Shown piece after piece: positions 39,506 through 44,324 of a DNA stretch of 64,000 bases. Made by a program: the position numbers and the translations under genes. The stretch's first letter is position 1; every line of letters begins with the position of its first letter. Under the pieces are notes generated by a model, which saw only the letters and a list, made by a program, of their open reading frames with translations, made no database searches and was not told the origin of the DNA. The DNA comes from Nitrospira japonica (GTDB lineage Bacteria; Nitrospirota; Thermodesulfovibrionia; Thermodesulfovibrionales; SM23-35), in assembly GCA_020725385.1 (NCBI GenBank), contig DYFC01000010.1:1-64000 (forward strand), written 5' to 3'.

Positions 39506-39913
39506 TTATTTAATAACCCGGGACACTATTTTTACAATGAATGTTGCTGATTTAATGGCTTCTTTTGCATCTTTTGAGTCATACTCATCTGTTGGAATAA
39601 AGTCCTCATCCCCATAAAATGCAAGTTCTCTTTCCTTGCGAAGTTTTTTAGAGATTTTTACAATCTTATCGAGTTCCCTGGAAATAAATACAGGCAATAA
39701 AGATTTGTTTTCTTTTAATATCGGGCTTACATCATGCCATTTTGGTGGTTCAATTCCAACATATCTAAGTAAACCCTTCAAAGCAAGTTCGACGATCTCT
39801 TGAGCCTCTCTTATAACATCAGAATAAGCTTCTTCTTTAAAAAGAACATCAAGTATTTTTAATCTTTTAGTTGCCTTAATTAGATAACTCTTTGCCAGAT
39901 TATTTGTTGTCAT
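39506..39913 (-). CDS. HEPN-domain protein
   Basis: REAQEIVELALKG..PPKWH..RELAFYG; overlaps the upstream MNT gene by 4 nt. Confidence 0.85.
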   Translation of the reverse strand: MTTNNLAKSYLIKATKRLKILDVLFKEEAYSDVIREAQEIVELALKGLLRYVGIEPPKWHDVSPILKENKSLLPVFISRELDKIVKISKKLRKERELAFYGDEDFIPTDEYDSKDAKEAIKSATFIVKIVSRVIK

Positions 39914-40374
39914 AGCTCGATTATTTCGCCTGGCTTTAAGTCAGGTTTTAAAATCCAATACCACCTTGTTCCTAAAAAAACTCGTTTTGATCCAAGTTTT
40001 TTAAACTTTATTTTTAAATTTTCAATTTTTCTTTTAAAAAAATCATTTTTATCATAAATAATGATTGAATCGTTAACCATATCAAAAAGAAGGGGGGTTC
40101 CATATTTAATTTCCTCAGGAGTTTTGATAATTGGTGATATATAATGAGGAACATTTTTAACTTTTTCTTCCACATTATCTATAAACTCTTCGATTCTTTT
40201 CATCTTTCTTTTATGGAGTCCTTCAACTATTAATAGCAAATCCATATCTGATTCAGGCGTACATGTGCCTCTTGAAAAAGAACCAAAAATTATCAAACTA
40301 ATAAGTCTCTCCTTGTAATAGTTAAGGACACATTCTTTTATTTCTTTAATATATTTTTTAAAGTCTTTTCTCAT
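39910..40374 (-). CDS. minimal nucleotidyltransferase (MNT)
   Basis: FGSFSRG..ESDMDLL pol-beta motif. Confidence 0.85.
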   Translation of the reverse strand: MRKDFKKYIKEIKECVLNYYKERLISLIIFGSFSRGTCTPESDMDLLLIVEGLHKRKMKRIEEFIDNVEEKVKNVPHYISPIIKTPEEIKYGTPLLFDMVNDSIIIYDKNDFFKRKIENLKIKFKKLGSKRVFLGTRWYWILKPDLKPGEIIEL

Positions 40375-40426
40375 AGAAAAACTATAACAAAATGTAATCA
40401 AATCTGCAAATTATTGTTCATAGTGT

Positions 40427-40631: not shown

Positions 40632-41687
40632 TTATTCTTTCCCCATTGGAGTTGCAAGTTTTCGCAATTGCTCCTTTGTAAGTGGTGAACCATATCCTGC
40701 GTATTGTAATCCTAAAAATATCATATTCTCAAATGGCTCCCATTTACCGTTTATATAGTTAAAAGGAATAAATTTATATTCAACTCCTTCAGCAATAGGG
40801 ACGATTCCTTTTGACTGCTTGAGTTCGCCATTTTCAAGCCATGTGAGTACAAAAGAACCGTTTTGTGCTGTTTTTGCATTTTCAGAACCATGACAATCAG
40901 AACATTTTCTCCCTTCTTTCACAACAGAATGACTGTTTTGAGGAGCAAATATAAGAAAAGTTTTATTGTCTTTTAAGACATATGTCTGCATATTTCCAGA
41001 AGTGACCTGACCGTTATAATTAATTAAAAATGTCCAGCCCGAGAGTTTCATATCAACACGTTTTTTATCATTAATCAAGGTTTCAAAATGACAGTTTGTG
41101 CAACTAACTACATGTCTTACATGACATGCGTTGCAATCGAGTCTTCCATTATGTATTTTGTGGGCTGTGGTTTCAGTTAAAGTCTTATGACAATTTTCAC
41201 ATTTTGCATCGATTGCCCCTGTCTGTTTCATAGAATTGTATTCCTTGCCATCTCCATGAACATCCCTTGCAGTATGGCAGTCCATGCATTGCATGCCCTT
41301 TGAAAAATGCACATCTTCCTGTTTATTATCTGAATCTATTTTCATTATTGTTCTTTCTCTTTTATGGCAACTCAAGCAAACATCCTGATTTCTCGCTGCT
41401 TTCACAGTATAGAATGATTTATTCCCCTCAATAGTTTTATGGCAAACATCACATGAACCAATATGGCAATTTATACAATCCAGCTTCTCACTTAAATATG
41501 GCAACCCTGTGTGAGTCTCAAGACCGCCATTTTCTTTATCATACCAGTAAGCCATCCCTTTTGTTGTAAAGTGAAGACTTGAATTAAAAAAAGATTGCTG
41601 GCCTTTTGATTCTGCAGCTATACCAATTCCTGAAATAATTAAAATTAAAAAAATAGCTAAAATAATTCTGTTAACTATCTTTAACAT
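40632..41687 (-). CDS. exported octaheme c-type cytochrome
   Basis: Signal peptide; 8 CxxCH motifs: CINCH, CDVCH, CLSCH, CMDCH, CENCH, CNACH, CTNCH, CSDCH; GGAGG RBS. Confidence 0.9.
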   Translation of the reverse strand: MLKIVNRIILAIFLILIISGIGIAAESKGQQSFFNSSLHFTTKGMAYWYDKENGGLETHTGLPYLSEKLDCINCHIGSCDVCHKTIEGNKSFYTVKAARNQDVCLSCHKRERTIMKIDSDNKQEDVHFSKGMQCMDCHTARDVHGDGKEYNSMKQTGAIDAKCENCHKTLTETTAHKIHNGRLDCNACHVRHVVSCTNCHFETLINDKKRVDMKLSGWTFLINYNGQVTSGNMQTYVLKDNKTFLIFAPQNSHSVVKEGRKCSDCHGSENAKTAQNGSFVLTWLENGELKQSKGIVPIAEGVEYKFIPFNYINGKWEPFENMIFLGLQYAGYGSPLTKEQLRKLATPMGKE

Positions 41688-41714
41688 AAATACCTCCATA
41701 AAATATAAAGATAC

Positions 41715-41882
41715 TCAAACCCTATCGCATGGCCTGCGTGCAATCTTTTCAAGACTTTGCTCATCAACTTCATTGATGTATTCTTTCAAAGGGAATTTTT
41801 TACCGCACTCCATGCAGTTAAATGTAATTACCCTTCAACCTATAATTAACTTTATTTTGCCACCACATTCTTTACATTGCAT
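41715..41882 (-). CDS. dual CxxC motif small selenoprotein (55 aa, UGA read as Sec)
   Basis: Reads MQCKECGGKIKLIIG-U-RVITFNCMECGKKFPLKEYINEVDEQSLEKIARRPCDRV; in-frame TGA at 41835-41837 lies between two CxxC motifs; absent from the ORF track. Confidence 0.8.
41790..41834 (-). promoter_or_regulatory. bacterial SECIS-like hairpin
   Basis: Directly 3' of the UGA: AGGG-U-AAUU..UUUA-ACUGCAU-GGA-GUGCGGU-AAA..AAUUCCCU stem-loop with a G-containing apical loop. Confidence 0.65.
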
Positions 41883-42096
41883 AACGTTATAGTATAACTC
41901 TACTTTATTTTGAAATCCAAGAATAAAATGAAAAAGCAACCAAGTTGCCAAGCTACCAAGATTGTACAGCGTAAGCATATAAAATATGAAATGATAAATT
42001 ACACTTTACACTTTATTTTTCACGTGCTCACTTTTAGCGTCTTTATTACTCTCTGCTCTTCGCTCTTAGCTTGATAGTTTATGGTATTATTAAGTT

Positions 42097-42699
42097 ATGT
42101 TATCACCCGGTGAAGAAAAGGCATGGGAAATACTTGAGAAACTCGATCCTTTAAGTGTATGTAAGAATTCTTTAGCTATATATGATGAAAAGGATAATCA
42201 TTACATTTTAAGAGCATTTGATTCAAATATCTTCATATCCCCCGATAAAAGAACGCTCAGCAGCAATTCGTCTGAAGGTGAAATTCTCATTAACCGTTAT
42301 GGATATTTTTTCGTTCACTCATGTCTTTGGTATTTAATAAAATCTAAAAATATACCTTTTACAGAGAGACTTGTTAGACCTTCTGACATTAAAGATGGAT
42401 CTTCTTTTTTCAAAGGAAGTCATTCACTTCCATTATCAAGACTTGCAGAAAAATATGGCAATGCCAAAGATACTTTTCTTGATAATTCTTATAAATTTGG
42501 GGCGTTATTACAGAATTTTGGGGATGCATCTATAAGACTTTTTCCAATGCCGAGAATTCCTGTCACAGTAATTTTATGGTTAAAGGATGAAGAATTCCCG
42601 GCAAGGGCTGATTTACTTTTCGACTCATCATGTGAAATCCATTTACCTGTTGATATTCTCTGGTCTATAGCAATGTTCAGCATTCTAATTCTATTATGA
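42097..42699 (+). CDS. DUF3786-like protein
   Basis: FFKGSH.LP, GDAS..L.P.PRIP..VILW..DEEFPARA.LLFD. Confidence 0.8.
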   Translation: MLSPGEEKAWEILEKLDPLSVCKNSLAIYDEKDNHYILRAFDSNIFISPDKRTLSSNSSEGEILINRYGYFFVHSCLWYLIKSKNIPFTERLVRPSDIKDGSSFFKGSHSLPLSRLAEKYGNAKDTFLDNSYKFGALLQNFGDASIRLFPMPRIPVTVILWLKDEEFPARADLLFDSSCEIHLPVDILWSIAMFSILILL

Positions 42700-44324
42700 G
42701 CTGGAAGCTTAAAGAGAAAGCTGATTTATTGTTATCAAAAGAACAGGGCACAATATTCAAAGACCCGGGCGGGAAAATTAACATCGCTCTTGTTTATCCA
42801 AATACATACCACATAGGAATGTCGAATCTCGGGTTTCAAGGAATATACGGTCTTTTAAATAACATAAACGATGTTGTCTGCGAGAGAGTTTTTTTACCCG
42901 ATGAAAAAGATATTGAAGAATTCTTTAGGACTAATACAGAACTTTTTTCGCTCGAATCAAAAAGACCTCTTCATAGTTTTGATATTATTGCTTTTTCAAT
43001 CTCTTTTGAGAACGATTATCCAAATATAACAAAAATTTTTGCACTTTCAAGAACACCTTTTTTCAGTTCGAAAAGGACAGAAAAACACCCTTTAATAATT
43101 CTGGGCGGTGTCTGCGCTTTTTTAAATCCAGAACCTGTTGCAGATTTTTTTGATATAGTTTTTATCGGAGAAGCGGATGAAATGCTTCCTGATTTTATAA
43201 ATATATGCAGGGGGTCTGCCGGAAAAGCAGATATATTACATAAATCTCTTTCGATTGAAGGATGTTATATACCTTCTTTTTACAGAATATCTTATACATC
43301 TAATGGAACAATAAAAAAAAGAGAAGCTTTATATGGAGCACCTGATACAATCAAAAGGCGAATTTTCAATGATATTTCAAAATCGAAAATCTTTACATCT
43401 ATAATTACATCTGAAACTGAATTTTCAGAAATGTCTCTAATTGAAGCCATGAGAGGTTGTCCATGGAATTGCAGGTTCTGCGCTGTTGGTAAGATATACA
43501 ATCCGCCAAGAAGAAAAGATTTAACTGTTATTAAAGGAGAAATACAAGAGGCACTTAAAAAGACAGAAAGAGTTGGATTAATAGGACCTTCTCTTTCAGA
43601 TTATCCTTTTATAAAAGAGACCCTTCAGATTGAAGGGGTTGATTTCTCGATCACATCATTGAGGGCAGGGACAAAGAGTACCGAACTTATAAAATTTATG
43701 AAAGGCCATAAAAGTGTCTCAATAGCTCCTGAAGCAGGCACCGACAGATTGCGCAAGGTTATTAATAAGAAAATAACAGAAGATGATATTCTCTTTACTT
43801 CTGAACAACTTTTTCTTGAAGGGATAGAAACTCTACGGCTTTATTTTATGATTGGACTTCCTACCGAGACAGATGAAGATATTAAAGGTATAGTGAACCT
43901 CATCAAAAAAATCAGAGCAATATCTTCCAGAGGTTTTATTACATTAAGTATAAGCACCTTTGTACCAAAGCCTTTTACTCCATTTCAGTGGCATCCTATG
44001 GAGAAAGAAACAGTTGTAAAAAACCGTCTGATGTATATAAAGAAGAGTCTTCTTCAAATTAAGGGTGTTAAAGTATTCCACGATGTTCCTAAATATGCAT
44101 ATATGCAGGGCCTTTTCTCACAAGGCAACAGACATATTTCAAAAGTTTTAGCAGTAATGATAAAACAATCAGATTGGTTGAAAGCAGCTGAAGAGTCCGG
44201 CATTGATAAAGATTTCTTTATTTTCAGAAAAAAGGACTTCTCCGAAATTCTGCCATGGGATTTCATTGATAATAGAATCTCTAAAATCAAGTTATGGGAA
44301 GAATATCAGGAAGCCTTTTCCTGA
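42696..44324 (+). CDS. radical SAM protein (TIGR03960-like)
   Basis: YPNTYHIGMSNLG, CERVF, RGCPWNCRFC (CX3CX2C), APEAG and FVPKPFTPFQW. Confidence 0.88.
   Translation: MSWKLKEKADLLLSKEQGTIFKDPGGKINIALVYPNTYHIGMSNLGFQGIYGLLNNINDVVCERVFLPDEKDIEEFFRTNTELFSLESKRPLHSFDIIAFSISFENDYPNITKIFALSRTPFFSSKRTEKHPLIILGGVCAFLNPEPVADFFDIVFIGEADEMLPDFINICRGSAGKADILHKSLSIEGCYIPSFYRISYTSNGTIKKREALYGAPDTIKRRIFNDISKSKIFTSIITSETEFSEMSLIEAMRGCPWNCRFCAVGKIYNPPRRKDLTVIKGEIQEALKKTERVGLIGPSLSDYPFIKETLQIEGVDFSITSLRAGTKSTELIKFMKGHKSVSIAPEAGTDRLRKVINKKITEDDILFTSEQLFLEGIETLRLYFMIGLPTETDEDIKGIVNLIKKIRAISSRGFITLSISTFVPKPFTPFQWHPMEKETVVKNRLMYIKKSLLQIKGVKVFHDVPKYAYMQGLFSQGNRHISKVLAVMIKQSDWLKAAEESGIDKDFFIFRKKDFSEILPWDFIDNRISKIKLWEEYQEAFS

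Follow-up and report, generated by a model that had tools for sequence, protein, structure and literature searches.

A member of the dual-CxxC small selenoprotein family beside an octahaem cytochrome gene in a Thermodesulfovibrionales genome

Background

Among the new selenoproteins described in symbionts of Olavius there is a hypothetical protein, OS_HP3, for which a predicted selenocysteine insertion sequence (SECIS) is displayed; it was first reported from deltaproteobacterial worm symbionts (Zhang & Gladyshev 2007, PMC1976440). It is listed in a table of PMC13188914 and corresponds to the NCBIfam family NF041197 ("dual CXXC motif small (seleno)protein"), whose model is of the equivalog type and has a curated cut-off of 40 bits. 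A term look-up in the Haft & Gwadz preprint gave no mention of NF041197. Here we describe a gene which belongs to this family. It is found on the minus strand of a 64,000-nt stretch of DNA, which we will call the window: positions 1–64,000 of contig DYFC01000010.1, from assembly GCA_020725385.1 (Nitrospira japonica; Nitrospirota, Thermodesulfovibrionales). The gene has an in-frame UGA, which is almost certainly read as selenocysteine (Sec), and it is followed by the gene of an octahaem cytochrome c.

Bacterial SECIS elements have been defined by four features (PMC13188914): a loop of 3–9 nt on a stem of 4–16 bp, a G within the first two loop positions, a distance of 16–37 nt from the UGA to the loop and a minimum free energy of −7.5 kcal/mol or lower. 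Two other systems are close to the features found here. In MccSep, the only enzyme known to combine multihaem cytochromes with selenium, Sec is placed inside the exported polypeptide itself (PMC13510729). A variant tRNA, the selC* tRNA-Cys, is reported in Thermodesulfovibrio/Nitrospirae; in the part of the source at hand a linked selB* is named only in two deltaproteobacterial subgroups (PMC5389517).

Results and discussion

A gene of 55 codons with an internal UGA

All positions are given in the numbering of the window; its genome (2.46 Mb, 71 contigs) will be called G000. The dual-CxxC frame starts at ATG 41882–41880 and its translation begins with MQCKECGGKIKLIIG. Beyond the TGA 41837–41835 it reads RVITFNCMECGKKFPLKEYINEVDEQSLEKIARRPCDRV and it ends in RPCDRV, followed by the stop TGA 41717–41715. 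The complete read-through peptide (41882–41718, minus strand) is thus MQCKECGGKIKLIIG-U-RVITFNCMECGKKF...RPCDRV. A first-pass annotation of the window, made from its letters alone, had given this start, this internal TGA and this in-frame continuation; every coordinate is confirmed. It also mentioned a family of small dual-CxxC proteins with a PCDR end and either Sec or Cys at this site. Such a family, with PCDR or PCNR ends, does exist: it is NF041197/OS_HP3.

The read-through peptide reaches 55.8 bits with the NCBIfam model (E = 3.8e-15), in an alignment which spans profile positions 1–53 of 53. In a six-frame search of the whole genome the score is 46.2 bits and the match is marked "1 TGA". 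None of 14 control genomes has a match above the cut-off. Pfam gives zinc-ribbon matches for the peptide, all of them below threshold. A natural Cys-form ortholog has as neighbours in the ESM Atlas only the clusters of its own family, with the name "Dual CXXC motif small (Seleno)protein". A word-indexed protein search with the read-through peptide gave no candidate which had enough words in common with it, an outcome without bearing on relatives. Judged by these comparisons, with a match to the family model far beyond chance, 41882–41718 is a genuine gene of 55 codons and a member of this selenoprotein family.

Conservation of the UGA codon

Our set of relatives has 21 genomes, G000 and 20 others; the related loci are placed in Thermodesulfovibrionales and all of them are metagenome-assembled genomes (MAGs). 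A match to NF041197 is present in 17 of the 21 genomes. Exactly one TGA is found inside 16 of these matches, and none in that of G005, a genome of the same genus. The result is similar in a sample of 401 Nitrospirota genomes, evenly drawn and searched with a threshold of E <= 1e-5: 170 genomes have a match, and among the 150 matches listed one TGA is present in 146 and none in four. Sec is kept in about 97% of the family matches listed.

We aligned 42 parsed genes, 41 from fetched loci and that of the window; L041, L056, L065 and L080 do not fit the pattern and were excluded. Codon 16 is TGA in 41 genes and TGC in a single one, which belongs to G005: the homologues have Sec or Cys at this residue, as the first-pass annotation expected, and never Trp. 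Residues C3, C6, U16, C23, C26, Y35 and R50 are invariant in the alignment, and Cys52 of the "PCDR" tail is found in 33 of the 42 sequences.

The frame beyond the UGA evolves as a coding sequence. The ratio of nonsynonymous to synonymous polymorphism (pN/pS), summed over eight pairwise comparisons, is 0.17 for codons 1–15 and 0.22 for codons 17–55: purifying selection acts on either side of the UGA. The sole Met after the UGA in G000, residue 24, is shared by only 16 of the 42 sequences, therefore an internal start is not conserved.

At least part of the locus is present in 16 public DNA runs from 11 studies, four of which (X1, X2, X4 and X7) were compared. No RNA run is listed for the locus. 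In X1, X2 and X7 there are contigs across the TGA 41835–41837, and no difference is listed at this place; X4 has no contig over 41514–41856. The sample of X1 may be that from which the genome comes. The environmental strain in X7 is about 94% identical: 28 letters differ over 41452–41909, of which 26 are listed. Eleven of the listed differences fall inside the small gene, two upstream and nine downstream of the UGA, and all eleven are synonymous changes in the third position. The variant in X2 has a single listed change, Met24 to Thr, which is the residue found most often at this site in the family.

The SECIS hairpin

The first-pass annotation described a stem-loop of SECIS type with a GGA loop right after the UGA. 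We do find it, with all four published features. The stretch of 71 nt which starts at 41840 has a predicted fold with an energy of −16.1 kcal/mol (z = −2.69; two of 200 shuffles were as stable); its nt 3–55 form a stem-loop with a GGA apical loop. The loop has 3 nt on a stem of 7 bp. In a gap-free alignment of the 41 Sec-type genes, column 30, which is the first position of the loop, is G in at least 90% of the sequences; the distance from the UGA (columns 4–6) to the loop (columns 30–32) is 23 nt.

RNAalifold predicts a single helix for the 41 sequences, a consensus stem of 6 bp in which columns 23–28 pair with columns 34–39. When the helix is taken with its seven pairs, 94.1% of 287 cells are standard pairs, as compared with 15–50% when the 3' partners are slid by 1–3 columns. 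Pair 23:39 covaries cleanly (GC in 31 sequences, AU in eight, other in two). The extended lower stem, as judged from the individual folds of the orthologs, is not conserved among the relatives. The choice of Cys codons is also informative: the two codons within the hairpin are UGC in 41 and 40 of the 42 genes, versus 34 at C3 and 30 at C6, while G000 as a whole (34.7% GC) favours UGU (1143 UGU vs 636 UGC). This preference gives some support for the hairpin which is independent of the protein.

According to the mechanism which we propose, SelB with Sec-tRNA(Sec) would bind the hairpin CUGCAU-GGA-GUGCGG, to which the codons of the second CxxC give rise. This hairpin is placed 23 nt beyond UGA-16, and selenocysteine would be inserted at codon 16. 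From family membership, the conserved UGA, the hairpin and the selection on the frame beyond the UGA, all of which are observed, we infer that Sec is very probably inserted at this codon in the G000 organism.

Structure and possible function

An AlphaFold2 model obtained with the 42-sequence alignment has low confidence (predicted local distance difference test, pLDDT, 63); it shows two short helices besides three strands, and residue 16 is placed in a turn between strands 9–14 and 19–23. No match at E <= 0.001 was obtained in a Foldseek search of the PDB; the top ones are small zinc ribbons, with E = 0.45 at best. In view of the poor model and the lack of a match we do not draw any function from the fold.

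The product would be a cytoplasmic protein of 55 residues, in which C3/C6 and C23/C26 might form a metal site of the zinc-ribbon type. Sec16 would be found between these two knuckles, in the turn of a beta-hairpin, and the C-terminal part would be an acidic helix which ends in RPC(D/N)R. Tentatively, the metal site would have a structural role and the exposed selenol would be the working group, perhaps together with Cys52; the protein might then be a small thiol/selenol redox protein or a chalcogen- or metal-handling one, a possibility to which we give rather less than even chances.

The octahaem cytochrome is a local neighbour

The stop of the small gene is found 27 nt before ATG 41687 of a gene with eight CxxCH motifs, the distance given in the first-pass annotation. 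A GGAGG precedes this ATG; from the alternative ATG 41699 the distance would be 15 nt. In Pfam the cytochrome matches the Cytochrome_C7 and c3 families, and its best NCBIfam match is ExtM, with 56.8 bits, far under the cut-off of 800. There is no in-frame TGA in this gene.

The first-pass annotation went further and suggested that the small selenoprotein and the cytochrome are co-expressed as a redox module. We consider this very improbable. The two genes are on the same strand with a short spacer, and a scan for consensus sequences, the only one applied here, found no terminator-like site between them on this strand; the cytochrome gene may share a transcript with the small gene in G000. The cytochrome is under purifying selection (pN/pS 0.14 between G000 and G005), and the pairing of the two genes recurs in other genomes. 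However, it does not recur widely. We compared two sets of loci, which overlap since they share genomes: 42 loci with flanks of 1.5 kb and 22 loci with flanks of 6 kb. The cytochrome follows the small gene in 5/42 loci (G000, G005, G002, a fragment in G001, and G302) and in 4/22 loci. These belong to two genera only, G302 being from the other genus. The congener G004 has no cytochrome beside its small gene and the copy in G001 is a fragment of 146 residues. Thus the conservation of the neighbourhood, which had been offered as a check of the module, does not hold across lineages.

In other genomes the neighbours are housekeeping genes without relation to the small gene, which follows aspS or adjoins the genes of ArsR, the alpha subunit of electron transfer flavoprotein (ETF-alpha), a YacP-like protein, ADP-ribosylglycohydrolase or patatin. 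Neither of the two sets contains a functional neighbour which is conserved across lineages. The length of the spacer is also variable, with 7 nt fewer in the X7 strain.

The location of the two products is a further difficulty. Attachment of c-type haem is periplasmic. The cytochrome starts with MLKIVNRIILAIFLILIISGIGIAAESKG, a hydrophobic N-terminus of the kind typical for export, and a signal peptide segment is absent from the small protein; both were read from the sequence, with no predictor. Since only the cytochrome carries an export signal, the two proteins would be on opposite sides of the membrane. In MccSep the Sec is within the exported polypeptide, as far as the accessible description goes (PMC13510729), an arrangement which also speaks against a module of two separate proteins. 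The cytochrome is a local, lineage-specific neighbour and not a functional partner.

Some details of these loci may be added. The cytochrome of G001 is apparently broken: what is left of it lies in two frames, as pieces of about 94 and 146 residues (L039, ~660–950 of the locus, which is 2212–2695 in the orientation used here; also L083). The 7 bases missing from the spacer in X7 are accompanied, within window positions 41677–41712, by the loss of three single bases among the initial codons of the cytochrome, a net change which is in frame and lies within the signal peptide. The aspS gene is directly upstream of the small gene and co-directional with it in 17 of the 42 loci (L054–L081, from the other class of the phylum); this synteny is lineage-specific and has no obvious functional meaning.

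Selenocysteine machinery and the undetected selD

The first-pass annotation supposed that the organism uses selenocysteine and proposed to look for selA, selB, selC and selD. Three of these four components are found. G000 has selA (628 bits), two selB genes with 358 and 384 bits, one of them canonical, and a tRNA-Sec with anticodon UCA (72 bits). The missing component is selD.

Several results weigh against reading the UGA as Sec in this organism, and most of them concern selD. For TIGR00476 (cut-off 125 bits) the best match in G000 is ThiL, with 69 bits; all three weak matches are other proteins (ThiL, HypE and PurM). A tblastn search with the SelD of a congener found no fragment in G000. The sister genome G005, which is 98% complete, also has no detectable selD. 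In the congener G002 selD is divergent to a group of DUF3343, YedF and cysteine desulfurase genes; in its place G000 and G005 have a noncoding stretch of 740–766 nt with 15–16% GC, found in the middle of a contig. Neither of these two syntenic gaps contains a remnant of selD. The FlpD/MvhD gene of the TGA type, present in G001 and G004, is absent from both G000 and G005; together with the Cys form of the small gene in G005, this favours a reduced selenoproteome. Outside the machinery, the hairpin overlaps the codons of the conserved C-M-[DE]-C-G and just one of its pairs covaries: being built from these codons, its conservation is partly an effect of the protein. An Rfam scan of 41600–42000 gave only rows at chance level, with no matching SECIS model, and the confidence of the structure model is low, as already mentioned.

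On the other side, the rest of the machinery is well preserved. Between G000 and G005 the ratios of nonsynonymous to synonymous substitution rates (dN/dS) are 0.078 for selA, 0.075 for selB and 0.10 for the second selB, with dS of 0.55–0.65; two control genes have ratios of 0.03 and 0.17, and the three values fall between them. G005 keeps selA, two selB and both tRNA genes. G000 also has two molybdopterin oxidoreductase genes with one in-frame TGA each (open frames of 909 and 1032 aa), which are probably selenoproteins of the formate dehydrogenase type. In one of them, an FdhA-like gene, the TGA is found at the same aligned codon in G000 and G005. No selU was found in the genus.

Among the 20 relatives, selD is found in 19; the sole exception is G005, the closest one. 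Random incompleteness is thus unlikely to explain its absence from both genomes, as none of the other 19 lacks it. The G000 assembly is 96.6% complete, with no contig below 5,155 nt and no masked bases. In the relatives selD is often found on short contigs or at contig edges. Most likely it is on a piece which neither the G000 nor the G005 bin has retained.

Two side observations concern selD in the relatives. All the selD genes of the 19 relatives carry an in-frame TGA: SelD is itself a selenoprotein throughout the order. G001 and G006 have two full-length copies each, and G004 has a full-length copy and a partial match.

The UGA might be decoded without the selenophosphate made by SelD, either with another Se or S donor for SelA or by insertion of Cys. 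We find this highly improbable. Selection acts on the Sec machinery and on the UGA genes in a pair of sister genomes without selD, a situation which random incompleteness would hardly produce, and the second selB adjoins genes for a tRNA-Sec-like tRNA, a cysteine desulfurase and YedF. However, the anticodon of the additional tRNA is GCA, which reads UGC/UGU and not UGA, and a shared location of selD which is hard to bin would explain both absences. Besides, no SelD-independent Sec pathway is known, according to what is accessible of section 4 of PMC13188914. It is also very unlikely that the G000/G005 lineage as a whole keeps selA, selB, tRNA-Sec and several UGA genes under purifying selection without any selD. 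In such a case the recoding of UGA would be fed by a SelD-independent donor, or by a product encoded near the cluster of the second selB with the tRNA(GCA), cysteine desulfurase and YedF genes.

Finally, that the UGA terminates, selD having been lost in the lineage, and that the gene is a relic which decays or turns to Cys as in G005, is extremely improbable: the undetected selD, the noncoding gap at its syntenic position, the TGC codon of G005 and the absence of the FlpD gene of the congeners would agree with it, but selA and both selB genes are intact with dN/dS of 0.08–0.10 at dS of about 0.6, the FdhA-like gene has kept its TGA in both genomes, the codons beyond the UGA are under purifying selection, with 9/9 listed X7 differences there synonymous, and the hairpin is intact.

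We therefore keep the reading of the UGA as selenocysteine. That selD is not detected in two sister genomes which in other respects appear committed to Sec is the only point of possibly wider weight in our results.

The second selB deserves a description of its own. It is placed directly downstream of the tRNA-Sec-like gene with anticodon GCA, which ARAGORN classifies as tRNA-Cys, and the same arrangement is present in G005. Both adjoin genes of a cysteine desulfurase, a YedF-like and a DUF3343-like protein.

Other features of the region

The coordinates of all features are collected in Table 1. The commonest neighbour of the small gene in Thermodesulfovibrionales is the TIGR03960-like radical SAM gene, which is divergently upstream in 15 of the 22 loci. 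The DUF3786 gene is upstream in nine of the 22, often between the small gene and the radical SAM gene.

The scan of the divergent intergenic region gave promoter-like sites, 12 against 8.9 expected, which is weak evidence. A hairpin with a T-run, which contains GC pairs, is found about 55 nt before the start of the small gene; its role may be that of a leader or an attenuator, unless the match to the consensus is due to chance.

On the other side of the cytochrome, between it and a patatin-like gene, we observe a HEPN gene (135 aa) together with a nucleotidyltransferase gene (163 aa), at window positions 39506–40401 on the minus strand. Among the loci compared this pair is only present in G000 and G005. 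It is likely a module of toxin-antitoxin type.

Table 1. Features of the small selenoprotein locus and related regions of G000 and G005
Feature	Position	Strand	Evidence or remarks
Dual-CxxC small selenoprotein coding sequence, 55 residues	41718..41882	-	translation, NF041197 match, alignment, pN/pS
In-frame UGA, codon 16, almost certainly read as selenocysteine	41835..41837	-	codon conservation, strain contigs
Core SECIS hairpin (predicted), 7-bp stem ACUGCAU / GUGCGGU, loop GGA 41811-41809	41802..41818	-	fold and RNAalifold
Extended lower stem, includes the UGA itself	41786..41838	-	G000 fold; folds of relatives differ outside the core
Octahaem c-type cytochrome, exported	40632..41687	-	8 CxxCH; 351 aa from ATG 41687, 355 aa from ATG 41699
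Divergent intergenic region	41883..42096	.	consensus scans: promoter-like site 41990-41961 (-), hairpin and T-run 41949-41935 (-)
DUF3786 protein, divergent	42097..42699	+	PF12654, E = 7.4e-32; recurrent within family-level clade
B12-binding radical SAM protein, TIGR03960-like	42696..44324	+	PF19864, PF04055; TIGR03960 430 bits, cut-off 462
AT-rich noncoding stretch at syntenic selD site	G000 contig C15:18315-19054; G005 C20:10821-11586 (L047)		
Molybdopterin oxidoreductase genes with in-frame TGA	G000 C27:33434-34756 and C27:13029-14435		
Second selB and tRNA-Sec-like gene	L002:1501-3357, L014:1497-1592; G000 contig C15:21101-23099		

Comparison with known systems

The family to which this gene belongs is already catalogued since 2007 and the G000 copy teaches nothing new about it. 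The almost universal presence of the family in Thermodesulfovibrionia is a point of distribution, not of kind. In practice, annotation should call a single selenoprotein gene of 55 codons at this place, which should be neither missed nor truncated, and the selenoproteome of G000 gains one more Sec gene. Being a family with no known function, OS_HP3 could reasonably be chosen for a first study of its biochemistry.

Other known systems share part of the features described here. The second selB, with a tRNA-Sec-like GCA gene directly upstream, is like the selC* tRNA-Cys/SelB* system, as far as it is described in the accessible part of Mukai et al. (PMC5389517). It differs from the decoding of UGA studied here, since a GCA tRNA of the selC* type reads Cys codons and has no role at codon 16. 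The pentahaem cytochrome selenoprotein MccSep/ExtKL also brings together selenium and multihaem cytochromes in sulphur-metabolising anaerobes, including Thermodesulfovibrionia (PMC13510729); in the locus studied here, unlike in that description, the selenoprotein is separate from the cytochrome and has no signal peptide. The zinc ribbons of ZifS (TTHA0897, PDB 8yoz) and aIF2-beta (1k81) have two CxxC knuckles and a three-stranded sheet, as in our model, but they lack a Sec or an invariant Cys in the hairpin turn, and the matches are not significant. The closest system is NF041197/OS_HP3 itself. The small gene shares with it a length of about 55 aa, two CxxC which flank the Sec/Cys site, the C-terminal RPC(D/N)R, a SECIS hairpin directly after the UGA and a score over the curated cut-off. 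There is no difference of substance between them: what we have described is an ortholog of this family in a MAG of Thermodesulfovibrionales.

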